Origin: Candidatus Buchananbacteria bacterium
GTDB lineage: Bacteria; Patescibacteriota; Patescibacteriia; 2-01-FULL-39-33
Length of the DNA stretch: 64,000 nt
Direction of reading: 5' to 3'
Assembly: GCA_041666505.1 (NCBI GenBank)
Contig: JBAYGU010000001.1
Location: forward strand, 477-64,476
Below, one piece after another: positions 2,643 to 60,045 of the stretch. A program made the position numbers and the translations under genes. Under the pieces are notes generated by a model. It saw only the letters and a program-made list of their open reading frames with translations. It made no database searches and was not told where the DNA came from. Each line of letters starts with the position of its first letter. The stretch's first letter is position 1.

Positions 2643-2918
2643 TTATTTGTTTTCTTCCTTCATCATAATCGCTTTAACAGGGCAGACTTCGGCACAGATG
2701 CCGCAGCCCTTGCAGTAATCCAGATCGGCCTCATAGATATTCTGATTCCTCGAATTTTTTTCCCCGGTATCGAAGCAAATGCCCTCAGGGCAGACCATGC
2801 CGCACAGCTTGCAGCCGATGCAGACTTCATGATCGAATTCAGGATAGCTTTCTTCGCGCCAATTGCCGGTTTGGACCTTGCTGGTCGTTCCCGGCTCGCA
2901 TGTTAATATGTTTTTCAT
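2643..2918 (-). CDS. porD: POR delta subunit, 2x[4Fe-4S] ferredoxin
   Basis: Two CxxCxxCxxxCP motifs (CIGCKLCGMVCP and CKGCGICAEVCP). Confidence 0.8.
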   Translation of the reverse strand: MKNILTCEPGTTSKVQTGNWREESYPEFDHEVCIGCKLCGMVCPEGICFDTGEKNSRNQNIYEADLDYCKGCGICAEVCPVKAIMMKEENK

Positions 2919-2921
2919 ACT

Positions 2922-3461
2922 CTAGTTATTACTCATTACTTCGAATCCGCGCTTGGCGGCAGCCACGTTCTTATCCGCGATATCGCCGGAAAATCGGTTG
3001 CGAATCGCTTTTTCCACCGCATCTAATTCTATCAATCCCGACATGGCGGCGAAAGCGCCCAGCAGCACAGTATTGATGATTGGCCGTCCAATCACTTCCC
3101 TAGCTATGCCGGTGGCATCCAGATCCCTGATTTTCACTCCTCGCGGCACAGTGCAGACATATTCTTTGCAGGAGTTCATCAGGATAGTTGCGGTTTTTTT
3201 TAAATCAGACAAAATAGCTCCGCCTTCCAAAAGCGATGTGTCTTGGACAATGGCATAATCAGGCGCGTAAACTTGGGCGCGCAAGCGAATTTCCTTGTCG
3301 TCTATCCTGACAAACGCCGTGACAGGCGCGCCACGACGCTCCACACCGAAATTCGGAAAGGCCTGAGCTGTCTTGCCGCCGTAATAAGCGGCTTCCGCCA
3401 AAAGTTCCGCCATCGTTACCGAGCCTTGGCCGCCGCGGCCATGAATTCTGATTTCTATCAT
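2922..3461 (-). CDS. porG: POR gamma subunit
   Basis: N-terminus MIEIRIHGRGGQGSVT is typical of the PorG/PorC family. It is the first gene of the operon. Confidence 0.8.
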   Translation of the reverse strand: MIEIRIHGRGGQGSVTMAELLAEAAYYGGKTAQAFPNFGVERRGAPVTAFVRIDDKEIRLRAQVYAPDYAIVQDTSLLEGGAILSDLKKTATILMNSCKEYVCTVPRGVKIRDLDATGIAREVIGRPIINTVLLGAFAAMSGLIELDAVEKAIRNRFSGDIADKNVAAAKRGFEVMSNN

Positions 3462-7470: not shown

Positions 7471-7508
7471 ACAAAAAAGCGACCCGTTCTGGCCGCTTCT
7501 TTTTTTTA
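7471..7508. terminator. Bidirectional hairpin terminator downstream of ileS
   Basis: AAGCGACC-cgttct-GGCCGCTT stem flanked by A-run and T-run. Confidence 0.45.
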
Positions 7509-10500
7509 AACTTTTACGATTTTTATCTTTACCTTCTCGCCGTTGATATTGACCGGCTTTTCATCGTTTTCCGCTTCAGCCACGCTATCGGCCAAAACCG
7601 ATTTAAGCAGCTCGGCGGATAATGCCGGATCAGCGAATACCTTACGAGCGATCTCACCGTCGCTATGCCAGCCGATCGTTATGCGGTCTTGGATCGTCAA
7701 CCCGGCATCCTTGCGCAAGCCGTTGATCGTCCTGACCAGTTCCCGCAGCACGCCTTCGGCTTTCAATTCCTCAGTCAATTCAGTATATAGCACGATACGT
7801 ATATTTTTTGAGAAAATAGTGTCTTTAATATTTTCACCACTCAAATTAATAGTATCATTAAATTCAAGGTGAATACTCCGTGGTTTTTCTGAAGATTTTA
7901 TTTCTAAATCTTTTTTAAATTCCACAACCTTAACATTTACTTCATCTGCAATAATTTTTGAATATATTTCATCCATAACCATGCCATAAACTTCAAGTTT
8001 ACTTAATGGCTGACGAATTTTAATCCCATTTTGGGCTCGCGAAGCCAATCCCAGCTCGACAATCTTCTTGACTTGCTCCATCTGCTCCAAAACATCAGTT
8101 CCAATTTTCCCCACTTTGGGCCACTTGGCTAGATGGACGGACTCCAATTCCCCACCAGCCCTCTTGTAAGCTTGCTCGGCGATAAACGGCGTAAATGGCG
8201 CCATGACTTTAGATAATTCCAAGATAGCGTGGCGGAAAGCTGCGATCGCCTGCTTCTTATCCGCTTCATCTTCACCCTTAAAACGATCACGGCTGCGCCT
8301 CAGCCACCAAGTCGAGAATTCATCGATGAATTCCTGGATCGGACGGACGGATCGCGGCAGATCATAAGCCTCCATCGACTTCGTCACCTCCGCGATTAAG
8401 GAATCCAATTTAGCCAGCAGCCACTGGTCCAGGACATTATCGAATTGGGAATTCTTCTCCCCCTTTACGAAAGGGGGAGCTAGAGGGGGTTTTGAAGTGT
8501 CTTCAGTCTTATATAGCTCGTAAAAACTGATAATATTATTGAGCAGCATCACGACTTTCTGCATCGCCTCCTTGACCCCGGCTTCGGAAAAATTCATGTT
8601 CTCGGCCTGCATGACGGGCGCCGATAATAAATAATACCTGAGTGCGTCAGCGCCGTATTTTTCCATGATGACTTCCGGCTCCGGATAGTTCTGCAATTTC
8701 TTCGCCATTTTTTTGCCGTCCTCGGCCAAAACGATGCCATTAACTATGACGTTGTCGAAGGCGCGGCTGCCCTTTATTGCCGAGGCGATCATATGCAGAT
8801 AATAGAACCAAGCGCGGGTCTGATCGACGCCCTCGGCGATGAATTTAGCCGGAAAACTGTGCTCAAATTCTTTCTTATTCTCGAAGGGGTAATGCTTCTG
8901 CGCATACGGCATCGAGCCGGAATCGAACCAGGTATCGAGCACATCGGGGATGCGCTTCATCTCTCCCTGGCACTTATGGCATTTGACCGTAACTTTATCG
9001 ATATGATGCTTATGCAAATCAGTGATTTTCTCGCCGCTGTCATGCTCCAATTCTGCGACAGAGCCATAGACCTTCATCTCGCCGCAGCCGCATTTCCAGA
9101 TCGGCATGACGCTCGCCCAGAATCTCTGGCGAGAAATTGACCAATCCCGCGCTCCCTCCAGCCATTTACCGAACCGGCCTTCCTTGATATGCTCTGGCGA
9201 CCAATTAATATCCTCGGCCAGCTTCATCGCCTTGTCTTTGACGTCCGTAACTTTGACGAACCAGGAAGACGTGGCGTAATTGATCAGCGGCGTGTCGCAG
9301 CGCCAGCAATGCGGATAGCTATGCTCGTATTTTTCCTTGGCGAACAGTAGCCCCTTGCCGGCCAGATATTTGATGATCATGACATCGGTTTTTTGCGTAT
9401 CTTCTGACGGCTTGACGTTCTCGCCGGCGAAGTCAGTTACTTCAGCGGTAAAATTGCCGCTCATGGTAACATTCTGGATGAAAGGCAAATTCCTTTCCTT
9501 GCCCAAGCGCATGTCATCTTCGCCAAAGGCCGGCGCGATATGTACCACGCCCGTACCATCCTCAGTAGTTACAAAATCTGCACTGACGATAGTATAAAGA
9601 TTGTCAATATTATTCAATTTTGCTTTAGCTTCAGCAGATTCATAATACGGAAATAATGGTCTGTATTTCTTTCCGACTAAAGATTGACCAGAAAATTCTT
9701 CAATAATTTTAAAGCCATATGGTTCTAATGCCATTAATCGATTATCTTTAATAAGAATAAATAAACGATCTTTTTTATCTGGTTCTTCGGTATCTAATTT
9801 AATTTTAAAATAAGTCTTTTCTGGATTAACAGCCAAAGCCACATTGGCCGGCAAAGTCCAAGGCGTGGTCGTCCAAGCCAAGACATAAGTGCCAGGTTCA
9901 TCAACTAATTCGAACTTGGCTGTCGCGCTCAGATCTTTGATATCGCGATAGCCTTCGCTGACTTCCTGCTGCGACAAAGTCGTCTCGCAGCGCGGGCAGA
10001 CATGCATTGATTTGTAGCCTTCATAAACCAAGTCCTTATCGTATAGTTCCTTGAACACCCACCAGACGGTTTCCATGTAATCCAGATCCATCGTCTTGTA
10101 TGGATTATCCATATCCGCCCAGCGGCCGAATCTGCCGATCGTAATTTTCCACTCCTCTGTATATTCCAAAACCTTACTGCGGCAAGCCTCATTGAATTTA
10201 TCCACGCCGTATTTGAGAATGTCCTTTTTCGATTTGAAGCCGAGCTGCTTCTCAATAATGTTCTCGATCGGCAAGCCGTGGCAATCCCAGCCCCAGCGGC
10301 GCGCGACATGGTAGCCCTTCATAGTCCAATAGCGTGGTACGACATCCTTCATGGCGCTGCCGACCAAGTGGCCATAATGCGGCGTGCCGGTGGCGAAAGG
10401 CGGACCGTCGTAAAAAGAATAAGCCGGACCGTTCTTGGTCTGCTCCAAAGACTGTTCAAAAATTTTGTTCGTTTTCCAAAATTCCTGGACTTCATGCTCA

Positions 10501-10574
10501 TTCTCGACTATGGAATTCAATTTTGTTTCTGTCATAATGTAAGAATAATACCAAAAAATACCTCTAAAAGTCAA
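7506..10574 (-). CDS. ileS: Isoleucyl-tRNA synthetase (long, type-2-like, 1022 aa)
   Basis: HYGH (HIGH motif), a KMAKK (KMSKS-like) motif and a zinc-finger CxxC pair. Carries a 13-aa repeat-encoded insert (see repeat at 8456-8494). Confidence 0.9.
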   Translation of the reverse strand: MTFRGIFWYYSYIMTETKLNSIVENEHEVQEFWKTNKIFEQSLEQTKNGPAYSFYDGPPFATGTPHYGHLVGSAMKDVVPRYWTMKGYHVARRWGWDCHGLPIENIIEKQLGFKSKKDILKYGVDKFNEACRSKVLEYTEEWKITIGRFGRWADMDNPYKTMDLDYMETVWWVFKELYDKDLVYEGYKSMHVCPRCETTLSQQEVSEGYRDIKDLSATAKFELVDEPGTYVLAWTTTPWTLPANVALAVNPEKTYFKIKLDTEEPDKKDRLFILIKDNRLMALEPYGFKIIEEFSGQSLVGKKYRPLFPYYESAEAKAKLNNIDNLYTIVSADFVTTEDGTGVVHIAPAFGEDDMRLGKERNLPFIQNVTMSGNFTAEVTDFAGENVKPSEDTQKTDVMIIKYLAGKGLLFAKEKYEHSYPHCWRCDTPLINYATSSWFVKVTDVKDKAMKLAEDINWSPEHIKEGRFGKWLEGARDWSISRQRFWASVMPIWKCGCGEMKVYGSVAELEHDSGEKITDLHKHHIDKVTVKCHKCQGEMKRIPDVLDTWFDSGSMPYAQKHYPFENKKEFEHSFPAKFIAEGVDQTRAWFYYLHMIASAIKGSRAFDNVIVNGIVLAEDGKKMAKKLQNYPEPEVIMEKYGADALRYYLLSAPVMQAENMNFSEAGVKEAMQKVVMLLNNIISFYELYKTEDTSKPPLAPPFVKGEKNSQFDNVLDQWLLAKLDSLIAEVTKSMEAYDLPRSVRPIQEFIDEFSTWWLRRSRDRFKGEDEADKKQAIAAFRHAILELSKVMAPFTPFIAEQAYKRAGGELESVHLAKWPKVGKIGTDVLEQMEQVKKIVELGLASRAQNGIKIRQPLSKLEVYGMVMDEIYSKIIADEVNVKVVEFKKDLEIKSSEKPRSIHLEFNDTINLSGENIKDTIFSKNIRIVLYTELTEELKAEGVLRELVRTINGLRKDAGLTIQDRITIGWHSDGEIARKVFADPALSAELLKSVLADSVAEAENDEKPVNINGEKVKIKIVKV
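8456..8494. repeat. Partial palindromic mini-element (RPE-like half copy) inside the ileS coding sequence
   Basis: CTCCCCCTTTACGAAAGGGGGAGCTAGAGGGGGTTTT. The same unit occurs at 32806, 40967 and 50111. It is translated in frame as KPPLAPPFVKGEK. Confidence 0.65.
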
Positions 10575-13993: not shown

Positions 13994-14093
13994 TACGAAT
14001 GGTACGAATAATACTAATGAATACGAATTTTTATTGAATTTATTCGTACCTATTTGTATCATTAGTAAATTAGTATATTCGTATCTTTCAAAT
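13994..14093 (+). promoter_or_regulatory. Cluster of five TACGAAT/ATTCGTA heptamer repeats in the thrS leader
   Basis: Three direct copies (13994, 14003, 14022) and two inverted copies (14042, 14087) within 100 bp upstream of the thrS ATG. The same motif is triplicated upstream of ymdB. Confidence 0.35.
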
Positions 14094-14102
14094 AATAAAA
14101 AT

Positions 14103-15833
14103 ATGTCCAAAAACAACGAGGCTTTAGACAAAATCCGCCACTCGACTTCGCACATACTGGCTTACGCCGTGCGTGAGCTTTTCGGCGAGGAAGTAAAATT
14201 TGCCATCGGCCCGACGATCGATGACGGCTTTTATTACGATTTTGATTTAAATGATCAAACTTTCACGCCGGAAGACCTGAAGAAAATCGAGAAAAAGATG
14301 GAAGAAATTATCAAGAAGAAACTGCCGTTCGAAAAATCAGAGCTATCGATCGCCGATGCGGAAAAGAAAATGTCCGGCCAACCGTATAAGCTGGAACTGA
14401 CCAAAGACTTAGCGGCCGCTGGAGAATCAACAGTCAGTTTTTACACTGTCGGAGATTTTACCGATCTCTGCCGCGGCCCTCATGTCGAAACCACCAAGGA
14501 GCTCGGCGCTTTAAAATTAATGAAAATCGCCGGCGCTTATTGGAAAGGCAACGAAAAGAATAAGATGCTGCAAAGGATCTACGGCACGGCCTTCGAAACA
14601 AAAGATCAATTAGCCGAATATCTTAAAATCTTGGAAGAAGCGGAAAAACGCGATCACAGAAAATTAGGCAAGGAGTTAGGTTTGATTTCCTTCCACGATG
14701 AAGGCCCCGGCTTTCCTTTCTTTAAACCGAAGGGCATGGTTATTTGGAATGAGCTTTTGAACTACTGGCGCGAAATGCATGAAGCGGCAGGCTATGATGA
14801 GATCAAGACGCCGATAATGCTCTCCCAGCACCTCTGGGAGACTTCCGGCCATTGGACCAATTATCGCGAGAACATGTATGAGACAATCATCGACGAAACC
14901 AAATTCGCCATCAAGCCGATGAATTGTCCGGGCGGATTCCTGATGTACAAGGAAGACATACATTCCTATCGCGAACTGCCGCTGAGATGGGGCGAGATCG
15001 GCTTAGTGCATCGCCATGAACTCTCCGGCGTCTTGTCCGGGCTGTTCCGCGTCCGCGCTTTCCATCAGGACGATGCGCACATCTTCATGCGGCCCGACCA
15101 GATCAAAGACGAGATTTTGGGCGTCTTGAATCTAGTTGATAAGATGTACGCCACCTTCGGCCTGACATATACTCTGGAACTTTCCACTAAGCCGGAAAAA
15201 GCCATCGGCTCCGATGAGGCTTGGGAAACGGCTACCGCCGGTTTGACGGAAGCGTTAAACAGCACTGGCAAGGAATACGAAATCAATGAGGGCGACGGCG
15301 CTTTCTACGGTCCGAAAATCGACATCAAGATCAAAGACGCCATCGGCCGGACTTGGCAATGCGGCACCATCCAGCTCGATATGAATATGCCTGACCGCTT
15401 CGATCTGACTTACACCGATTCCGACGGACAGGAAAAGCGTCCGGTCATGATCCATCGCGTCATTTACGGCTCGATGGAAAGGTTCTTCGGCGTGCTCATC
15501 GAGCACTTTGCCGGCGCTTTCCCGCTCTGGCTCTCTCCGGTGCAGGCGATGATCATTCCGGTCTCGGAAAAATTCAATGATTACGGCGATAAAGTATTTG
15601 CTGATATGAAGGCCGCCGGCATCCGCGTCGAAATCGATAAATCCGATGAATCGCTGGGCAAGCGCATCAGGAACGCGGAGAAGCAAAAGACTCCCTACAT
15701 ATTAGTCGTGGGCGAAAAGGAAGTCGAAGCGAAAACGATCGCCGTCCGCAAGCGCAGCGAAGGCGATCTCGGTAGCAAGGATACAAATGAATTCATCGAA
15801 GAAATAAAAAATGAAATTGCGGATAAGAAATAG
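14103..15833 (+). CDS. thrS: Threonyl-tRNA synthetase (lacks N-terminal TGS domain)
   Basis: HSTSHILA editing-domain motif and the class II core RDHRKLGKELGL..FHDEGPGFPFF. Start is taken at ATG 14103 (MSKNNE...) rather than the track's upstream TTG start at 14034. Confidence 0.9.
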   Translation: MSKNNEALDKIRHSTSHILAYAVRELFGEEVKFAIGPTIDDGFYYDFDLNDQTFTPEDLKKIEKKMEEIIKKKLPFEKSELSIADAEKKMSGQPYKLELTKDLAAAGESTVSFYTVGDFTDLCRGPHVETTKELGALKLMKIAGAYWKGNEKNKMLQRIYGTAFETKDQLAEYLKILEEAEKRDHRKLGKELGLISFHDEGPGFPFFKPKGMVIWNELLNYWREMHEAAGYDEIKTPIMLSQHLWETSGHWTNYRENMYETIIDETKFAIKPMNCPGGFLMYKEDIHSYRELPLRWGEIGLVHRHELSGVLSGLFRVRAFHQDDAHIFMRPDQIKDEILGVLNLVDKMYATFGLTYTLELSTKPEKAIGSDEAWETATAGLTEALNSTGKEYEINEGDGAFYGPKIDIKIKDAIGRTWQCGTIQLDMNMPDRFDLTYTDSDGQEKRPVMIHRVIYGSMERFFGVLIEHFAGAFPLWLSPVQAMIIPVSEKFNDYGDKVFADMKAAGIRVEIDKSDESLGKRIRNAEKQKTPYILVVGEKEVEAKTIAVRKRSEGDLGSKDTNEFIEEIKNEIADKK

Positions 15834-15905
15834 CATAAAAAAAATCACCTTGGATTATACCAAGGTGATTTTAATTGCGAGCAATCTTTCTATCTTCCAA
15901 GCCGC

Positions 15906-16340
15906 TCATATGCGATCAATAAACAGCGCGGCTTTTTCCAAAAGCTTCTTGATGTCTTCATGCTTGGCTGATTTGATCGCTTCCGGCAAGCTCATCCAAG
16001 ATCCGCTCAAGCCTTCGGCCTGCCTTTCGCTTGTTTCTGCAAAATCATTCTCTAGCAGCTTGGCGAGATAATAATAGATGACTTTGAAGGCTTTTTCCCC
16101 GTCCAATTCGAATTCGAATTCGATCTTGCCGAGCAATCCGCCATCGACCAATTCGATATCCTTATATCCCGTCTCTTCCGTTATTTCTCGCAAAGCGGCC
16201 TATTCCACGCTCTCGCCTTCTTCGACGTGGCCTTTCGGCAGGAGCCATTCGTCGCGCTCCTTCTTATAAATCATATAGACTTTCTTCTGCCGCGGATCAT
16301 ATAATACTCCTCCGGCCGTAACATGTGTTTTCATATTCAT
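15906..16340 (-). pseudogene. Nudix hydrolase interrupted by an in-frame TAG inside the Nudix box
   Basis: ATG 16340 overlaps the upstream gene stop (ATGA). Translation reads ...GHVEEGESVE-TAG(16200-16202)-AALREITEETGY, a perfect GX5EX7REUXEEXGU box except for the stop at a position usually E or Q. Confidence 0.5.
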
Positions 16341-17176
16341 ATATTATTCCTGATAGCAGCTGTTATGGCTTTTGCTTCTCCTTGCGCATAATAGCAAGGT
16401 AAAATTTTAGTTAATCTGCCGATCAAGACATTACGTTTTCTAGCGAGAAGAATATTATCCAACGGAGGCAACGGCTCGATATTTGAAAAAACCCGTCTTG
16501 ATGTGCCCCTAATCTTCCTGTTCATCTCTTCGAACAGATGCCAGTCGAATTTCTCACTCGTCCATCTATCCCAACTTAGTTCATTGGGGACGGAAGTGAC
16601 AAAAGGGTAAACAAACATTGCTATCGGCAATTCCATCTTTTTGCGCAAAGCTAACTTATCATAAACATTCTTTTTACCCTTATTAAAATAAGCGCTGCCA
16701 ACTCCCCCGACGACCATTGAATGCTTCAAGTCAATGACGACTTTTTCGTCAGCAAACCAAATACAATCCGCTTGTTCGCTGAAATACTTAGCTAAAGCAG
16801 TCTTGCCCATACCGCTGGCGCCGCCCCAAAAAATAATCGCCCTTCCTCCGACTTCGACTGCCGCGCCATGCATACAATAGTAGCCTCTGCTTTGTCTAGC
16901 ACGTTCCAATAAATATTCCGCCAGCGATAAGACATCATTGACATCAACTGACTTATTTCGATATTCAGCCCGAGGATATTTTAACATTATTCGACTCGCT
17001 CCTCTTTCTAAATCCAATATCACATCTGTTTTATTTCCCGATTGATCGATAATTACCTCAGGAATATAACGATATAAAAAATCAGACTTAATCAGTTTTT
17101 CAATATCTTCTGGATTATTGCTCCTCACCAATACCGATGCGCCGCATGAGCTAATTCTTAGAAAATGTCTTTTCAT
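16337..17176 (-). CDS. HPr kinase C-terminal-domain-like P-loop protein
   Basis: HGAAVEVGGRAIIFWGGASGMGKTALAKYF matches the HprK core (hG..v...G.GvLi.G.SG.GKS..AL). Confidence 0.5.
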   Translation of the reverse strand: MKRHFLRISSCGASVLVRSNNPEDIEKLIKSDFLYRYIPEVIIDQSGNKTDVILDLERGASRIMLKYPRAEYRNKSVDVNDVLSLAEYLLERARQSRGYYCMHGAAVEVGGRAIIFWGGASGMGKTALAKYFSEQADCIWFADEKVVIDLKHSMVVGGVGSAYFNKGKKNVYDKLALRKKMELPIAMFVYPFVTSVPNELSWDRWTSEKFDWHLFEEMNRKIRGTSRRVFSNIEPLPPLDNILLARKRNVLIGRLTKILPCYYAQGEAKAITAAIRNNI

Positions 17177-18269
17177 AAATTTTTTCCACTTGTTTGATTC
17201 TTATTTGCCAGCTCCATTTGCCCGCAGCCGCTATTCTGGCATTTCTGCCAAGACTGTCAGCTAAAACAGAGTCAGCCAACAATCTGTTCATTGCTTCGGC
17301 TAATGCGATGGCATTTCGGGGAGCGACCAATAATCCGTTACCGCCATTTTTTAAATATTCCGACATGCTGCAAGCAGTAGTGGTTATGACTGGCCGACCG
17401 CAAGCTCCAGCCTCCAGCATAGTAGTTAATATTCCCTCACGGTCATATGAGGGCAATACTACCATTAAGGCTGAATTATAAAGCGAGGGCAAATCCTCAT
17501 CTTTAACGTAACCGAGAAAATGAACATTTTGGGTCAATTTTTTTTCCTTGGCCAACTTACGCAAATTGCCCTCTTCTGGCCCACTACCAGCTATGGCAAC
17601 CCTTATCGCCTTATTTCTTAACTTGGCCAATGCCTCGATCAAATAATTGATTCCCTTGGTTTCAATAAGCCTTCCAACATAAAGCGCGTCATATTCGATA
17701 TCCGTCTTCATCGGGATAAAATGATCAGCATCAATTCCATTAACGGCCACGGAAATTGTTCTTATCGGCGCCATATCCAGCCATTTTTGCTTTATCAATT
17801 CTGAAACGGAAATAAATGCTGAAGGAATCGTTGCGCACAGATCATGCATGTAATTGCTTTGCAGCGGATATCCATGAAGATGCAGAACCGACTTCTGGCC
17901 GAAAGGCACCGCGATAGAATCTAAATAATTATGGACGGCTATTAAATCAAAATGCTGACGTAAAAAATAGCAATAAGCTAATCTGCCGACATGTAAGCTC
18001 TCATAATCCCACCGTATCCATCTCTGACCAGGTAGTTCGCCATAAATCCACTCAAATTCTTCCGGCAAATCAATATAAGCTACCTTAACTTGAGGATTTT
18101 CCTTAAGAAATTTCAAAAAATATCCGCTGGATTTTATATATTTTGCCCGGACAGTCACCAGCGTCACTTGATGACCTGCCAATGAAAGGAATTTTGCATG
18201 CTGCAAAGGAACGACTTCTCCGCCTCCGACATAATAGCTGGCTCTCGGCTGATATATGGCAATTTTCAT
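17151..18269 (-). CDS. Glycosyltransferase family 4 (GT-B, group 1)
   Basis: C-terminal GT1 signature ...PSYDREGILTTMLEAGACGRPVITT. Confidence 0.75.
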   Translation of the reverse strand: MKIAIYQPRASYYVGGGEVVPLQHAKFLSLAGHQVTLVTVRAKYIKSSGYFLKFLKENPQVKVAYIDLPEEFEWIYGELPGQRWIRWDYESLHVGRLAYCYFLRQHFDLIAVHNYLDSIAVPFGQKSVLHLHGYPLQSNYMHDLCATIPSAFISVSELIKQKWLDMAPIRTISVAVNGIDADHFIPMKTDIEYDALYVGRLIETKGINYLIEALAKLRNKAIRVAIAGSGPEEGNLRKLAKEKKLTQNVHFLGYVKDEDLPSLYNSALMVVLPSYDREGILTTMLEAGACGRPVITTTACSMSEYLKNGGNGLLVAPRNAIALAEAMNRLLADSVLADSLGRNARIAAAGKWSWQIRIKQVEKIYEKTFSKN

Positions 18270-18769
18270 AGTCGATTCCTTTCAAAAAATCTTATGAATG
18301 ATTCAATCTGCGCCTGGCCGGTAACCGATGATTTCATCCATTCGATATATTCCGGCAATTCCGCAGGAGAAACGAAATTACGTTCCGACGTTTCAAACTC
18401 AGCTCTGAATTCTCCGATATCAGATAATCTGCAAAAAAATCGCAATTGGAAATATTCCCGGCCTTCGATCGAATCATTGTTCGGATCATTGACTTCGACA
18501 TAGCCTATAAGCTTAAAATCTTTTATGGAGCAATCAGCCTCTTCCATAATCTCTCTTTTCAGCGACTCCTCCAATGTCTCTCCTGATTCCGGATGTCCTC
18601 CCGGCAATCCCCATCCGTGTTTATTCTTTATGATTAAAACCTTATCCTCGTTATCCAGACAAAAAGCGCTAACTTGGGAAATATTTTTTCCGACAGGAAT
18701 ATTTTCTGCTTCTTGCCAAGTGAGCGTAAGATCTCTGCCTGCAAATGTCGTTTTTTCGCTGATTAGCAT
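18266..18769 (-). CDS. Nudix hydrolase (intact)
   Basis: Nudix box GGHPESGETLEESLKREIMEEAD. Confidence 0.75.
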   Translation of the reverse strand: MLISEKTTFAGRDLTLTWQEAENIPVGKNISQVSAFCLDNEDKVLIIKNKHGWGLPGGHPESGETLEESLKREIMEEADCSIKDFKLIGYVEVNDPNNDSIEGREYFQLRFFCRLSDIGEFRAEFETSERNFVSPAELPEYIEWMKSSVTGQAQIESFIRFFERNRL

Positions 18770-18782
18770 AAATAATATTTTA

Positions 18783-19367
18783 TTAATTTTCGTTGAATAT
18801 TTCCCAAAGCTCCGTCGGCAGATTGCCTTTCTTCTTTAATCGATCGAATTTATCTCCCAATATCATCCTTAAATCACTTAATGCCTCATCTGCGCTGTCT
18901 GCTGTATGGATGACATTCTTCTGCGTCAGAACGACTGATAATTCGTCCTGCCGCGGATGAGCGCCATTCTGCCACAGCTTTAGATCCTCATCGGATACTT
19001 TTGAATCCCGCTGTAATTTCTGCCTGATAACACCGTCACCCGTTTCTTTTTTTTTCAGACTGGACAATACCCGTTGGGCTTCCAAGCCGTCGCCTCCGAC
19101 CAGCAAAACAATCACCTCATGACTAGACAGATATTTTCTCATTGCCGGATAAAAATGCTGATTGATTGAATCAGCATAAATATAATCGACCGCTTGCGGC
19201 GATAATTTTACTTTATCTTCATAAACGATCATTAAGCCGTTTTCTTTTAAAATAGATTCTATCGCCGGCAAATCATCTATATATTCCGGCTTTATGAAAG
19301 CAAATGCTATTTCCTTTTTGGGCATTAAGTCTTTGATTTCTTGCCCTGGCGGATATTCTCTTATCAT
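18783..19367 (-). CDS. Nucleoside-diphosphate-kinase-like protein (divergent, N-terminal extension)
   Basis: AFAFIKPEY (compare NDK FIMIKPDG) and NVIHTADS (compare NDK NIIHGSDS, catalytic His). Confidence 0.5.
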   Translation of the reverse strand: MIREYPPGQEIKDLMPKKEIAFAFIKPEYIDDLPAIESILKENGLMIVYEDKVKLSPQAVDYIYADSINQHFYPAMRKYLSSHEVIVLLVGGDGLEAQRVLSSLKKKETGDGVIRQKLQRDSKVSDEDLKLWQNGAHPRQDELSVVLTQKNVIHTADSADEALSDLRMILGDKFDRLKKKGNLPTELWEIFNEN

Positions 19368-21103
19368 ATATTCCTCTCGATTATTTCTAATAAACCGGCT
19401 TCGCCCGGTTTTTGAGCGACGTATTGGCTACGCCTCCTGTAAAAGGATTTCGCATTCATGATAGCGCAAAATTTTATTTTGCGCCAATTGCCATCGACAG
19501 TCTCGTTATCACTGATGAAAATCGCCTGCTTGCCGCTAAAATAGACGTTAATCAATCGGTCTAGAGCCGAGATCTTTGATACGCCAGGATTGTCCACTGT
19601 TATCTTTGCCGGCTTGGATAATAAATTTATCTTATGATCAGGCAATTCCCTCTGAAGCATGGCATATATATTCTTGGCCAATCCATAATTGGGCTGCCCA
19701 TTACATCTTGCATAAATACTGGCAGAATATTTCCTTTTTGCGCTGACAAATATCAAATATTTTTCTTTTTGAATATTAATAATATTCTTGTCATAACCGG
19801 TTACTACTCGATACCCCGCGCCTTTATAATTATCTTTCAATAAGCTTGAAATAGTCCGCCTCAATCGCCTATCAGAATGCGGAGCTTCTTTTTTTAAGCC
19901 ATGGGGCGTTAACTTGAAATATGAACCACCCTCGCAGATAATAGGGCCGTTTAATCCAAAATCATAATAAACGCTTTTCGCCTCAGCCCAGGGACGATTA
20001 GTATTCAATCCGAATATAACGCCGTCTTTCGTAAGATTTCTAATCTTATTTTTTAATTTTACAAAAGAAACGGCATCGTCGGATACCAATGTGCCGTCGA
20101 TATCGAAAAAAACCAGCGGATATGCTTTTTTCTTGGTGCTAACGGCCGCCTTCCATTGAGTAGGCGGCTCATAAATACCTATATTAAGCAGCAGGAATTC
20201 TAATTTAAGGCACATCCAGAAAAACCCCTTCATTGCCAAGTAAATCAGCCAGATTAAACCGTCGCCAAAACCTGATTTTTGCCATTTCTTCCAATCAGTG
20301 CGTCGGTTCAGATGCGGCCAAAGATAATTATATTCGGGGAACCAACACTTCATTTTTTCCATTTCGATATTGCGGCGGCGATAGACATTAAGCCAATCAT
20401 AGAATGAACTGATCGGCCAGGAATAGCATTTTGCCTTGGCAACCTGCCTTATGGAATTCAAGCCGAATTTGTCAATGAAGTAACTCGACATGAACACATC
20501 GTCTGCAGACAGCAATATGCCGTTGCTGCAATATTTCAGCATCATTTTACTCCGACGACAATTTTTTGCCCGCCTGGACACCTCATAATCAGTGGGAATA
20601 TGCCAATGACGAGTTGCAAATAACCGCCCATGAAAATACTGGCGCGGCGAAAGCATTGCCTGCGAATCATACAATCTGCCGATTTTTTCGGCTAAATTCA
20701 TATTAATTTTATCCTTAGCCAAGGATACTGTTTTAGCATAGGTAACGGCCAACTGAGAATTGCCTTTTAATGCGTCAACGAGCAACTTTATGGAATCTTC
20801 GGCAATTAGACCATCAGCATCAGGAAACACGAAAATTTCCGCCGGAAATTTATTGACAATCATGCGCTGGGCATTGACTAGGCCGGGACGGCTCCTGATT
20901 AGTTCACAGGCGATTTTAGGGTGGTCTTTTTTGAAACGCCTGAATTCCTTTTCAGTGTCATCCGTACAGCCGTTAACGCAAACGACGATTATATATTTTT
21001 TTATTCGACAAAAAATAACAGCCTTGCTGATCGATTCCAGGGCTGAGTAAATATTGGTTGCTTCATTTTTTGCCGGAATTCCAACGGTTAACGAATACTT
21101 CAT
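19364..21103 (-). CDS. Bifunctional GT2 glycosyltransferase / HAD-IIB-like phosphatase fusion
   Basis: N-terminal GT-A fold (VGIPAKNE...DADG) and C-terminal HAD motifs (VFFDIDGTLV, GLNTNRP, ISDNETVDG). Confidence 0.65.
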   Translation of the reverse strand: MKYSLTVGIPAKNEATNIYSALESISKAVIFCRIKKYIIVVCVNGCTDDTEKEFRRFKKDHPKIACELIRSRPGLVNAQRMIVNKFPAEIFVFPDADGLIAEDSIKLLVDALKGNSQLAVTYAKTVSLAKDKINMNLAEKIGRLYDSQAMLSPRQYFHGRLFATRHWHIPTDYEVSRRAKNCRRSKMMLKYCSNGILLSADDVFMSSYFIDKFGLNSIRQVAKAKCYSWPISSFYDWLNVYRRRNIEMEKMKCWFPEYNYLWPHLNRRTDWKKWQKSGFGDGLIWLIYLAMKGFFWMCLKLEFLLLNIGIYEPPTQWKAAVSTKKKAYPLVFFDIDGTLVSDDAVSFVKLKNKIRNLTKDGVIFGLNTNRPWAEAKSVYYDFGLNGPIICEGGSYFKLTPHGLKKEAPHSDRRLRRTISSLLKDNYKGAGYRVVTGYDKNIINIQKEKYLIFVSAKRKYSASIYARCNGQPNYGLAKNIYAMLQRELPDHKINLLSKPAKITVDNPGVSKISALDRLINVYFSGKQAIFISDNETVDGNWRKIKFCAIMNAKSFYRRRSQYVAQKPGEAGLLEIIERNI

Positions 21104-55458: not shown

Positions 55459-58400
55459 TTATGGAACTGCAATAGCATTATCCACTTCGCCAGCTGGCGG
55501 TACTTCAAAAATATCTTTAGTATTAATTGCGGTAAATCTTTTTTTCAATCCTTCAAAGGCCGTTTCAGCTGCCCTATTTTGAAAGGTGCGTCTGTCTTCA
55601 TTAAAATAAGACGCCTCCACTAACTTCTTAAGTTGTTCCGTTTTTTTCGAGTCAAAATGGATATCATTAATTTCTTCCGTAGTCAGGCCGCTGAGCCATT
55701 CCCTGGTCTTTTTTTTCTGATCATCCCGAAGCTTTCCTTTATTAAGCAGGATTTCCTTTACTAATTCTTCCAGTGTCTGGCGCTTGGCTTTTGTTTCAGA
55801 AACTTCAACTTTTGGTTCTTCCACTGCTGTCTCAGACTTTATTTCAGTCACGCTTCTTTCACCTTCCTGAAAAGTAATTCCCGGGATTTCCTTTTCCACT
55901 ATCGGCAAGCCTATCGGAACATTGCCTGCTTTTTTTTGTCTCAAATCTTCCAATGCGATACGGCCTCCAGTTTCACCTGCTCCGCCTTTCGGATTATTTG
56001 CGCCAACGGCTTCCGATTCCATATCTTTAGTCCGCGGTCCTTCTAATGGCCGCCTAGGATCGAAGGGCAAAACTGGCGGCACATCCCAATCCTTGCCGAT
56101 CGGCAGCTCAGGGTTTTTCATATCGAATGAGTAGCTGAATTTATTCGTTACTGATCCCGACATAACTCCCGCATCGATATTCTTACCGGATATCGTCGCC
56201 AAAACATGGCTATTGCCGGCATCATCAATAATCCTCAATTCGCCGAAACGGAAAGGTATATTGCCATCCTGCATGCTGTTTTTGGCGCCGAATAATTTAG
56301 AAATGGAATCCCCCAGATTAATCTTGCCTGAGCCGTCAGTCGAATCAGTCAGATAGCTTAAGCCCGCTTTATTGTCTCCCTCTGTCGGGAATATCGCCAC
56401 TTTAAGATGTTTGGCCAGTTCCCCTTTGCTCGCCCATTCAGCCAATTGATCCCTTAATCCGGCCAATTTCGTATCCACGCTGCCGTCAGGATTAGTGCCG
56501 AATTCTTTGACCGCGTCCTTGGCGTTTGCCGATAAATTCTCCAATATTCTAGAAGCATCGACCACGACATTGCCGGACGCATCCTTATTCATATAGAACA
56601 TCTGCTGCTTGCCCTCATGCTCGATCAAGCGATTGAAGAATGATGACATTTTCTTGCCCGGTTCATCATGCCAATCAGCCCGAGCATGCTTAGCCAGCCC
56701 TTCCTGCAGCTTGCTGGCCACGCTGACATTTTCCGTTACTTGCGTGTGAGTCTCATTAGGTATTATTCCGCTTTCTTTTAATGACTTCAATAATTCCGGA
56801 TCGATTCGACCAGTCTTGGGATCGAGTTCAATAGGACTTTTTATAATTGAATTTCCTTTGCTATCCAATAACTGGCCATCTCTGAATGCCAGATGCTGCA
56901 CGGCGCCTTCGCCGGCCGTTCCGTGATCGCCTTTGAACCAATGATACATATGTTCCAGGGCGCTTTCCGCTTTAGACGTTCTGCCCAATACATGCTCGCT
57001 GAATTGCCCAGTTATCCATTGGCCGATCGCACCCGCAGCCAAGCCAGTTCCTGCGCCTATTAAAAAACTCTTTTTTCTTTCCCAGCGTTTATAAGCCTCG
57101 AAATTATTATCGTTTTGTTCGATATTGCCGGTTAAATCAGCTTTGATTTCATTTATCAGCGCTTGCATTTCATGACCATCGGGCGACAGATTGAATTTTT
57201 TTCTGATATCTTTTAACGCCACTTTCAAATCCTTCATAGCGATCAGCTTTGTCTTATGCGCTTCGCCTTCCGCCTCAGAAACGCCGATCAAGTCGACTGA
57301 TTTTTCTTTTTCCAACTCAATGCGCGCCATCACATCAGCGATGGCTTTTTTATCCTCATCGGTCAAATTCTCCCTGGCCATGATTTCCGCCAGGCTCGCC
57401 TGCAATTGCTCGGCGCGCTTAAGGTCATAATTAAATTCCCTGATTTTATTCGTTCTTTTGGCATCATCATCAACTTCAATGCCCAAAGTCGAACGACGCA
57501 AATCCATTCCTCGATCATACTGCAGATCGCGAGAACGGCGCATGGCAGTAAACGTTCCGCCCATGCCGGCACCGATTAAAAGCGGCGCCAGCCACGGCGC
57601 TACTCCGGCAACAGTAACTAGCCCGCCCATTGCCGCCAATCTGGCCGTACCCTTGCCAATCACAGCGCCCGCGATTCCGCCGACTACGCCATAAGTCACA
57701 GGATTAGCTATTACTTTATTGAGTATGGGAATATTTTCTGTCGCGTCGACGAATTTTTCATACCACTTCAAAACCGGCTTCGGCTTGGTTTCATACAAGT
57801 CTTTCTGTTTCAATCCTAACTGAATATCCAAAGCCATCTCCGCCTTGACCTGCATTTCTATATTTGCCGCCTGTTCCGGACCAAATTCCTTTCCTAATTC
57901 TTTCACCTGGCTCTCCACTTGTTTCCGATAACCTTCAGCCAAAGCGAATAAATTATTGGCATACATCAAGCCTTCGGCTTCATCCTCCCGGCCGGTTGCG
58001 CCGAACTTCTTATTCTTGTTTTTCAATAGGGCGATAACCCGCACCTCTACGGTCTGATCGAACTCAGCGCGAGTCATATCGGAAGTGGCATAATCGACGA
58101 ATAATTGACCGACCACCAAATTGATTTCGTCATCTTGCACTAAGTCGCCTTTTTCATCAGCATCCATAACCTCATGAGTGAACTCTTCCAAAACAGCGTC
58201 CAATATCTCATATGATTTGTCAATATTTTCTGATTTGATTCCGCTGGTCAGCATCCTGGCTTCTATTTCCGCCATTAGATTCTTATTGTCCTTGATCGCC
58301 GCCAAAGCCTCTTTGTAATATTTCATCAAATAGCCCTTTTCGCCCAAGCGGACTGCAGCCCGCGTCAAAAAATTAGATTGAGATTTATCCAGCATGCTTC

Positions 58401-60045
58401 TGAGTTTCTGCTCCGCTTCACGCCAAGCCATGGCTTTGACAATTTCCGAGATATCAACGATGAAAATCTTTTCTCGCGATTTTTTAATGACTTCTAACTC
58501 TCCGGCGTTTTCCGGCTTGTGTTCGATCTGCAACTGTTCGACAATCGGATCAACAATCACCTTTTCTTTCGGAACAACTTCCAACTCGCTGGCGTTTCTT
58601 GAATCATGAGTAATTTGCAAAGGCGGTTTTATAACTCTTTTTTTAGGCGGTATGACTTCCAACTCGCCAGTACCCGGCTTGTGTTCAATCTGTAATGGTT
58701 CGTCATATGTGATCTCCAATGGCTTAATTTTCGGTTTTTCTTCCGGTTTCTTATCTTCCTGCAAAACAATCTCTCGACGTTTGCTCATCGCCTCCATAGC
58801 CAGCTGGTAATCCTTGTCAGCATCTCCGGTCGAACGCATATCCAACGACGCCAATACAGCTTCTAATTCCGTCCGCCAATGCTGTTCATCTCCCTTCATG
58901 TCCGGACGAATTTCAAAATATCCCCTGCTATTGGCTTGCAAGGTCTCAATTATACCGTTAATTTTCTTTAATTCCTCATCCAGCTTCTTCAATTTATCCC
59001 GATTAACCTCGCCTTCGCCGTCTTGAGCCGCTTTTTCCGTTACCTGCCTCAATGCTTCACCGGTCTGCAAAGGAAAATTATCAGAATCGACCGCATAATC
59101 AACGCCATCCTGATTAAGCGCCGCACTATTGCCCGCCTCCTTATCGGCCTTGGCCCAAGTCTGCCTCGTGGCATCTACCCATTGCCTTACCCTGCCCCTA
59201 ATAGCGCTTTTATTCGTTGATAAGCCATTATAAACTTGGTGCCAAGCGATTTTTTCTTGATGTTCCTGATCCGTCCCCTCCTTATCGCGTCCGATCTTTT
59301 CCAAAGTCTGTTCATACTGCTTCTTCAGATCTTTCGCCAATCTCGCCATGCTTTCCAAATCCTTTTTACGTTCTGCCAGCTTTCCGGCTTCCGTCTCCTG
59401 GCTCTTGGCAATAAGCTTCAGCTCCTCAATCAAGTCATCAACCGGAATGCCTTCGCGCTGGGAGCGATCATCCACTTTGACCTCAAAAGTCAGGTCAGCG
59501 CTGTCTTGAGCTTTATTTTTTGCATTCTCAACGCTTTTTATGATCCATTTTATGCGGTCGGATTTCTGCGCTTCGGGCAGATTCTTCAATATTTCCAGTC
59601 CTTCATCTACCTGGCTGATTATTTTTCTTCTAATCTCAATATTATTCGCAACTTTTTCCGGAGCCTGTTCGCTTACGTTAACAGTAGTTTCCGATTTCGA
59701 AGAAACTTCAATTTTTGCCTCGAACTCGGCTTTTAAGGCAGCGGCTTCGCGCTGGATCGCCTCAATCTCTTGCATGTCTTTTTGAAGATCCAAATCAGAT
59801 TCCTTGATTCCCAGCTCCCTTAATTCGGCCAATATCCTTTTTAAATCACCCTCAGTTTCCGCATTGATCTTATCAGCGCTTTCTTCCATTTTCTGTTTGA
59901 GCTTATCAAGAATTTCGCCCAAAGACTCCCGCCTGGCCAAGGCAACGTCTTCTGGATTTTTTATTTCTTCGATTTTTGCATCTTTAGACTCATCCATATT
60001 TATCCTATTTAATTTTTGACAGGATCCTTCTAATTTTTTCGTCAT
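55459..60045 (-). CDS. Giant (1528 aa) coiled-coil membrane protein with central glycine-zipper TM hairpin and internal ~25-aa repeats
   Basis: Uninterrupted 4.6-kb ORF. The N-terminal ~780 aa are charged and coiled-coil. A TM block (GVVGGIAGAVIGKG...LLIGAGMGGTF) follows. Three PLQIEHKPGTGELEVIPPKK-like repeats are present. Confidence 0.6.
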   Translation of the reverse strand: MTKKLEGSCQKLNRINMDESKDAKIEEIKNPEDVALARRESLGEILDKLKQKMEESADKINAETEGDLKRILAELRELGIKESDLDLQKDMQEIEAIQREAAALKAEFEAKIEVSSKSETTVNVSEQAPEKVANNIEIRRKIISQVDEGLEILKNLPEAQKSDRIKWIIKSVENAKNKAQDSADLTFEVKVDDRSQREGIPVDDLIEELKLIAKSQETEAGKLAERKKDLESMARLAKDLKKQYEQTLEKIGRDKEGTDQEHQEKIAWHQVYNGLSTNKSAIRGRVRQWVDATRQTWAKADKEAGNSAALNQDGVDYAVDSDNFPLQTGEALRQVTEKAAQDGEGEVNRDKLKKLDEELKKINGIIETLQANSRGYFEIRPDMKGDEQHWRTELEAVLASLDMRSTGDADKDYQLAMEAMSKRREIVLQEDKKPEEKPKIKPLEITYDEPLQIEHKPGTGELEVIPPKKRVIKPPLQITHDSRNASELEVVPKEKVIVDPIVEQLQIEHKPENAGELEVIKKSREKIFIVDISEIVKAMAWREAEQKLRSMLDKSQSNFLTRAAVRLGEKGYLMKYYKEALAAIKDNKNLMAEIEARMLTSGIKSENIDKSYEILDAVLEEFTHEVMDADEKGDLVQDDEINLVVGQLFVDYATSDMTRAEFDQTVEVRVIALLKNKNKKFGATGREDEAEGLMYANNLFALAEGYRKQVESQVKELGKEFGPEQAANIEMQVKAEMALDIQLGLKQKDLYETKPKPVLKWYEKFVDATENIPILNKVIANPVTYGVVGGIAGAVIGKGTARLAAMGGLVTVAGVAPWLAPLLIGAGMGGTFTAMRRSRDLQYDRGMDLRRSTLGIEVDDDAKRTNKIREFNYDLKRAEQLQASLAEIMARENLTDEDKKAIADVMARIELEKEKSVDLIGVSEAEGEAHKTKLIAMKDLKVALKDIRKKFNLSPDGHEMQALINEIKADLTGNIEQNDNNFEAYKRWERKKSFLIGAGTGLAAGAIGQWITGQFSEHVLGRTSKAESALEHMYHWFKGDHGTAGEGAVQHLAFRDGQLLDSKGNSIIKSPIELDPKTGRIDPELLKSLKESGIIPNETHTQVTENVSVASKLQEGLAKHARADWHDEPGKKMSSFFNRLIEHEGKQQMFYMNKDASGNVVVDASRILENLSANAKDAVKEFGTNPDGSVDTKLAGLRDQLAEWASKGELAKHLKVAIFPTEGDNKAGLSYLTDSTDGSGKINLGDSISKLFGAKNSMQDGNIPFRFGELRIIDDAGNSHVLATISGKNIDAGVMSGSVTNKFSYSFDMKNPELPIGKDWDVPPVLPFDPRRPLEGPRTKDMESEAVGANNPKGGAGETGGRIALEDLRQKKAGNVPIGLPIVEKEIPGITFQEGERSVTEIKSETAVEEPKVEVSETKAKRQTLEELVKEILLNKGKLRDDQKKKTREWLSGLTTEEINDIHFDSKKTEQLKKLVEASYFNEDRRTFQNRAAETAFEGLKKRFTAINTKDIFEVPPAGEVDNAIAVP

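Follow-up and report, generated by a model that had tools for sequence, protein, structure and literature searches.

What does a single amber codon mean when it stands inside an otherwise textbook catalytic motif, in a phylum known for changes of the genetic code? The question is raised by a Nudix hydrolase gene (Nudix1) on the minus strand of the window, the whole 64-kb stretch of DNA that was analysed. The initial annotation had offered very recent pseudogenisation, a sequencing error or site-specific readthrough as explanations. Translated from 16340 to 15903, the minus strand reads MNMKTHVTAGGVLYDPRQKKVYMIYKKERDEWLLPKGHVEEGESVE, a stop, AALREITEETGYKD and onwards to FIDRI and the terminal stop. 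This frame has 144 codons and one internal TAG, flanked by LPKGHVEEGESVE and AALREITEETGYKD. With the stop masked, the Pfam NUDIX family (PF00293) matched residues 5-133 of 144 in one stretch across the stop, with 68.2 bits against a cut-off of 21.1 (E 9.3e-19). The 46-aa and 95-aa ORFs are therefore the two halves of one domain. The C-terminal fragment stays in the frame of the N-terminal one and is free of other lesions. All fixed positions of the Nudix box are kept (G37-x5-E43-x7-R51-E52-I-x-E55-E56-x-G58-Y59), and the amber occupies the fourth of the seven variable x positions. The reading as a Nudix hydrolase with an in-frame TAG in a box that is otherwise complete was thus confirmed. Feature coordinates are collected in Table 1.

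Table 1. Features of the Nudix1 locus and its surroundings. Positions refer to the window unless a relative is named.
Feature	Position	Strand	Description
Nudix1, Ap4A-hydrolase-like Nudix gene	15906..16334	-	142 codons from the conserved MKTH start; one amber codon inside
Premature TAG (amber)	16200..16202	-	codon 47 counted from the first ATG and 45 from the conserved MKTH start
Nudix box	16164..16232	-	GHVEEGESVE, stop, AALREITEETGY; G-x5-E-x7-R-E-U-x-E-E-x-G-U, whole except for the stop
N-terminal fragment ORF	16200..16340	-	46 codons and TAG, or 44 codons if counted from the conserved start; encodes beta-strands but not the catalytic helix
C-terminal fragment ORF	15906..16193	-	95 aa; TTG start 6 nt past the TAG; as called by gene finders
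Stub of deleted NDK-like gene	15871..15909	-	first 7 codons MSGLEDR (15909..15889) match the L003 NDK, then diverges and stops
Hairpin terminator	15841..15872		13-bp stem and T-run, between the convergent Nudix1 and ThrRS; kept in L003
P-loop protein, 279 aa	16337..17176	-	GGASGMGKT; PEPCK/HprK-like fold; last gene of the glyco-cassette
GT1, 372 aa	17151..18269	-	cassette gene
Nudix2, 167 aa	18266..18769	-	cassette gene
NDK-like, 194 aa (NDK194)	18783..19367	-	cassette gene
GT2+HAD fusion, 579 aa	19364..21103	-	cassette gene
Native module in relatives	L003 3959..6399; L007 4572..7031; L008 418..2861		NTP_transf_2; P-loop protein with faint HprK_C similarity

An ATGA overlap with the upstream gene had been taken as a sign of genuine operon membership. 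The overlap is present in the window: the first ATG of Nudix1 (16340) is in frame and overlaps the upstream TGA (16339..16337). It is not the conserved start. Every Nudix1 orthologue begins at the second ATG (16334, MKTH), and relative L042, 90% identical, has TTG where the window has the first ATG. Judged from these alignments, the true start is therefore probably 16334, 2 nt past the upstream stop.

The upstream neighbour had been described as HprK-like, which holds for the fold class. A model of the 279-aa protein was confident (pLDDT 93.3) and showed a compact, kinase-like PEPCK/HprK fold. In Foldseek searches with this model, the best matches were ATP-dependent PEP carboxykinases (E 1e-8, TMq 0.5-0.58), ahead of weaker ones to HprK/P (E 3e-5 to 1e-3, TMq ~0.27). 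At the sequence level, no Pfam or NCBIfam family matched above threshold, the HprK matches included (Hpr_kinase_C, E 0.19; TIGR04352, E 0.007, cut-off 200 bits). Some relatives bear a precomputed PF27840 label, and the family comprises at least 35 clusters, widespread across Patescibacteria. On the model, the protein is assigned to the PEPCK/HprK P-loop fold class and is not demonstrably an HPr kinase.

Orthologues show what the interrupted codon replaces. A search of 5.8 billion proteins yielded 27 Nudix1 relatives, all of Patescibacteria type, including seven full-length proteins of 140-144 aa with 68-80% identity. The closest homologue, P0029 (142 aa, 97% identical), was added by cluster look-up. 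In the column aligned with the TAG, 25 homologues have glutamate (18), glutamine (2, in P0029 and P0014) or, once each, aspartate, alanine, asparagine, glycine and lysine; a stop occurs in none. The expectation of Glu or Gln at this site agrees with these counts. At this site the closest relative L003 has CAA, L005 has GAG, and L007 and L008 both have GAA, in line with the proposal that TAG lies one point mutation from GAG or CAG. On these sequences parsimony cannot decide between GAG and CAG as the immediate ancestor. Orthologues that are normally two separate ORFs had been named as grounds for rejecting a broken gene; all 25 homologues are single uninterrupted ORFs.

Other versions of the locus were sought in genome and metagenome collections. 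An exact DNA-pattern scan of the GTDB species genomes with the codon masked gave no match. Protein-guided scans of genome and metagenome collections retrieved orthologues that are all more distant, with 80% identity for the best one (Patescibacteria MAG JBAZMO01), and further alleles of this species were not recovered in these scans. A protein search with the 46-aa fragment alone returned only the fragment itself, the single candidate collected, which speaks only weakly against the existence of diverged truncated copies. The L042 contig (SRR22388334) stops at Nudix1 codon 28, short of the amber codon.

Most probably, Nudix1 is a genuine gene that has suffered a very recent single-base nonsense mutation (GAG or CAG to TAG) in one clonal population of an uncultured Patescibacteria bacterium from landfill groundwater. 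The stop recurs between assemblies, the orthologues are uninterrupted, TAG serves as a normal terminator in the window, the break lies in the catalytic helix and the neighbouring NDK-like gene is deleted. Ribosomes would terminate at the amber and release a peptide of 44-46 residues with the first beta-strands only, and essentially no active enzyme would be made. The rest of the ORF would look perfect only for want of time to decay further. The loss may be tolerated, the locus already being dismantled and the cassette described below supplying another Nudix and another NDK-like protein.

The consequence for the protein can be read from the AlphaFold (AF2) model of the 80% identical orthologue, a canonical Nudix fold with pLDDT 94.7. 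In this orthologue the Nudix catalytic helix spans residues 43-55, of which residue 45 is the third. The terminated product of 44-46 aa consists of four short beta-strands. It lacks R51, E52, E55 and E56 (R49, E50, E53 and E54 of the orthologue) and everything C-terminal of them, about two-thirds of the fold. In the Nudix fold, the glutamates of the REUXEE motif bind the catalytic metal. Without them, the terminated product is predicted to be inactive.

The age of the lesion was estimated by comparison with L003. Besides the stop, Nudix1 differs from L003 by 13 synonymous and 3 missense changes. The dN/dS is 0.054 for the whole gene; the part before the stop gives 0.081, the part after it (codons 46-142) 0.047 and the adjoining ThrRS 0.061. 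Relaxed selection downstream of the amber was not measurable in this comparison, and there were no frameshifts. The similarity of the value after the stop to those of the upstream part and of ThrRS argues for a recent mutation. As a rough bound, the C-terminal part may have been neutral for at most about a fifth of the window's branch: with ~231 non-synonymous sites and a dS of ~0.19, longer neutrality would leave more than two missense changes, and two were observed. The intact downstream part fits a very recent event and, as a sequence pattern, should not be taken as positive evidence of decay; a functional gene would also show no lesion or missense excess past the stop, and this counts against the pseudogene. 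With all 25 homologues intact, the TAG reproducible and relaxed selection not yet detectable, the evidence favours recent pseudogenisation among the explanations first offered.

The differences from L003 are unevenly distributed. They cluster around the TAG at 16172..16208 (codons 41-50), where a stretch of 10 codons contains 8 of the 17 codons that differ. At the nucleotide level there are 8 mismatches in 30 nt, a density with a permutation p of ~0.001 inside the gene. Both lineages contribute changes, and patches just as dense occur commonly in the flanking genes, which are more diverged. The cluster could be a short recombination or conversion tract or a clustered multi-nucleotide event. 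On a larger scale, DNA identity to L003 is 95.6% for Nudix1 (15889..16344) and 91.2% for ThrRS (14097..15876), with dS of 0.17 and 0.44, and the Nudix1 segment is bounded on both sides by rearrangement breakpoints. The lower divergence together with the breakpoints suggests that lineages have exchanged this segment more recently than the flanking DNA. The ThrRS protein is 95% identical between window and L003. Its mechanical ORF (599 aa, TTG start) is ~23 codons longer than the orthologues (573-576 aa), the extra part being 14034..14102; the real start is probably the ATG near 14103 (MSKNNEALDK...).

The locus around Nudix1 has been remodelled. In relatives, the gene belongs to a native four-gene module encoding a nucleotidyltransferase (~222 aa), a P-loop protein (~250 aa), the Nudix protein and a long NDK-like protein (~195 aa). 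This module was seen in L003, L007, L008/L009 and a 207-kb contig. Homology between the window and L003 starts 9 nt before MKTH and ends ~20 nt past the Nudix1 stop. Downstream of Nudix1, ~570 bp of the NDK-like gene are gone and the sequence runs into the hairpin terminator. Upstream, the two native genes are replaced by a cassette (16337..21103, minus strand) of GT2+HAD, NDK-like, Nudix2, GT1 and, as the last gene, the P-loop protein, transcribed in the same direction as Nudix1. The gene order matches in L042, L043/L044 and L045, and it occurs in a Buchananbacteria MAG and other contigs. Sizes are conserved as well (NDK-like ~193 aa, Nudix ~165 aa, GT1 ~370 aa, P-loop ~280 aa), and the HAD part is a HAD-IIB phosphatase. 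In the Buchananbacteria MAG and other contigs, no Nudix1 orthologue follows the cassette. The GT+HAD pair weakly resembles mannosyl-3-phosphoglycerate synthase/phosphatase, a sequence resemblance that hints at a glycoside solute or surface glycan for the cassette.

NDK194 shares 52-54% identity with the native NDKs, which are 63-70% identical among themselves. For the 279-aa protein, identity to the native P-loop proteins is 24-32% over 75-94 aa; the native ones share 70-83%. By sequence, the native module and the cassette are judged to be paralogous in three components, a triad of P-loop, Nudix and NDK-like proteins in two forms. The window holds a full second set of the triad beside a native set cut down to the amber-interrupted Nudix and the NDK stub, which makes a loss of Nudix1 plausible. 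That redundancy with the cassette allowed the loss is put forward with some caution, for three reasons. L042, 90% identical in DNA, has the same junction of cassette and Nudix1; its first 28 Nudix1 codons show 4 synonymous changes and 1 missense change, which argues that Nudix1 was kept for long, under purifying selection, after the cassette had arrived. In L005, the Nudix1 orthologue persists intact without NDK or P-loop neighbours. Nudix2 is only ~33-40% identical to Nudix1 over partial alignments and leans, below threshold, to a different, YtkD-like subfamily.

A near-cognate tRNA-Gln might sometimes read the amber, making the gene a 'pseudo-pseudogene' from which a little full-length Gln-45 Nudix1 is produced. 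We consider a leaky stop of this kind rather unlikely. The trace enzyme could suffice for a low-demand house-cleaning function, or the stop could act as a down-tuning mutation. Within the Nudix box, the amber falls on a variable position without a catalytic role. Glutamine is tolerated there in P0029 and P0014, and a Gln-inserting readthrough product should, on this alignment, be active. The downstream ORF is intact and its dN/dS low, as a leaky stop would predict, but a very young pseudogene is equally expected to have an intact downstream ORF. Among Salmonella pseudogenes, readthrough is most frequent at UAG and inserts mostly Gln (Feng et al. 2022, PMC9122581), which agrees with a leaky amber; a C-rich context is enriched around the stops concerned (PMC9122581). 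The context of the Nudix1 amber, GAA-UAG-GCC (A at -1, G at +4), is not C-rich. The stop is absent from every diverged sequence that reaches this site, the RNA 3' of the amber folds no better than shuffled sequence (z = +0.55), and no Rfam element was matched. Low-level readthrough with Gln is possible by analogy and might yield traces of active enzyme. Every premature UAG shows basal readthrough, however, and this does not turn a site into a programmed one. For site-specific, programmed readthrough, as proposed initially, there was no support: neither a conserved stop in diverged orthologues nor a stimulatory context, an RNA structure or an Rfam family was detected.

It is improbable that the amber is actively maintained, a leaky UAG serving as a heritable 'dimmer' of expression with trace Gln-45 enzyme made by near-cognate readthrough. 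If this were true, the same TAG would be expected in the diverged L042-type strain.

A sequencing or assembly artefact, with GAG or CAG as the true codon and an intact Nudix1, requires only a single-base error. The TAG recurs in separately built assemblies. A contig assembled by Logan from run SRR6484324 matches window 14059..16835 (2,777 bp) at 100% identity, as does a JGI contig of metagenome 3300037810 for 14646..19340 (4,695 bp); both include the TAG. With the window contig, no fewer than three assemblies, built from two or more datasets, have the allele, with flanks that are 100% identical. Database records list further contigs of 64.6 and 65.7 kb with the TAG allele. The exact 46-aa and 95-aa products are also on record from other assemblies, as separate genes called by two gene-calling pipelines. 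A random consensus error would not recur in this way, which makes an artefact very unlikely, and the sequencing error considered by the initial annotation is effectively excluded. Sample 3300037810 (SO_2017 GW1) was taken in 2017 from groundwater well GW1 at a Southern Ontario landfill; from its number range, our guess is that SRR6484324 belongs to a 2016 series from the same landfill. Since identity among the contigs with the TAG is 100%, they may stem from a single population at one site and not from independent lineages.

A reassignment of TAG, genome-wide or via a suppressor (Gln, Glu, pyrrolysine or similar), is scarcely credible. Altered codes do occur in part of the phylum, and only 64 kb of the genome are visible. 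The one recoding described in the phylum is UGA to Gly in Gracilibacteria/SR1, not UAG (PMC13293708). Stop usage of the 61 confident genes, covering 89% of the window, is 31 TAA, 16 TGA and 14 TAG (23%), as expected from the earlier remark that all three codons terminate genes. ORFs of up to 1,528 codons lack an in-frame TAG, and Nudix1 is the only amber-interrupted gene in ~57 kb of coding sequence. L003 keeps the terminal TAG of ThrRS at the aligned position. With ARAGORN, neither tRNA nor tmRNA genes were detected in the whole 64-kb window, despite its ~89% coding density and the presence of ThrRS and ArgRS, so no suppressor is visible there. Global recoding, regarded as unlikely from the start, is excluded for the window.

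Other same-frame TAG junctions between long coding-strand stretches are those of ordinary adjacent genes. At 2646..3461 (minus strand), a 2-oxoacid:ferredoxin oxidoreductase gamma subunit of 179 aa ends in TAG, and a 4Fe-4S delta-subunit-like ORF follows in the same frame with its ATG one codon past this TAG (MKNILTCEPG...CIGCKLCGMVCP...). The pair consists of ordinary adjacent subunits and is not a readthrough fusion. Two very large ORFs lie on the minus strand, at 55459..60045 (1,528 aa) and 7506..10574 (1,022 aa).

A split enzyme, in which translation restarts at the TTG (16193) and the pieces of 44-46 aa and 95 aa associate non-covalently to give an active Nudix fold, is hardly conceivable: the TTG lies 6 nt past the stop and is preceded at 5 nt by a weak AGG, and gene finders call both pieces, but the cut falls inside the catalytic helix, no orthologue is split, the TTG is the codon of the conserved Leu48, also in L003, L005 and L007, and did not evolve as a start, and we found and know of no precedent.

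The best reading of Nudix1 is that of an ordinary fresh pseudogene, a known kind of event and not a case of unusual decoding. This is a clean negative: in a phylum known for code changes, an in-frame stop in a textbook motif is a strain-level nonsense mutation. It gives annotators a reason to label the public 46-aa and 95-aa 'genes' as one pseudogene. The locus also reveals two paralogous Patescibacteria modules of P-loop kinase, Nudix and long NDK-like protein, one apparently displacing the other. The pair may be worth following up by comparing the metabolism of nucleotides or sugar nucleotides among these reduced genomes.

Several known systems resemble the interrupted gene. The nearest solved relative is the Ap4A hydrolase of Aquifex aeolicus (PDB 3i7u), which aligns end to end with Nudix1 residues 1-136 (E 3e-15) and has Glu at the position aligned with the amber. 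Judged by sequence, this likeness is at family level only. All NCBIfam equivalogs score far below their cut-offs (best NF052459, 55.7 bits, cut-off 475), and Nudix1 is therefore not assignable to MutT, RppH, Ap4A hydrolase or another named subfamily. The UGA-to-Gly code of Gracilibacteria/Absconditabacteria (genetic code 25) occurs in the same phylum and likewise shows as in-frame stops at conserved positions of conserved proteins. In Nudix1, by contrast, the codon is UAG and not UGA, it occurs once, and all three stops terminate genes in the window. The 'pseudo-pseudogenes' of Salmonella likewise have a single in-frame UAG, one substitution from sense, in an otherwise intact, operon-embedded gene. 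Their stops lie in a C-enriched context (PMC9122581), whereas the Nudix1 amber has A at -1 and G at +4. A functional member of the Nudix hydrolase superfamily (PF00293) would need an uninterrupted ORF for the whole alpha/beta/alpha fold, whereas that of Nudix1 has an amber in the catalytic helix. Cut at the third residue of this helix, Nudix1 is therefore filed as a Nudix pseudogene and not as a functional member.
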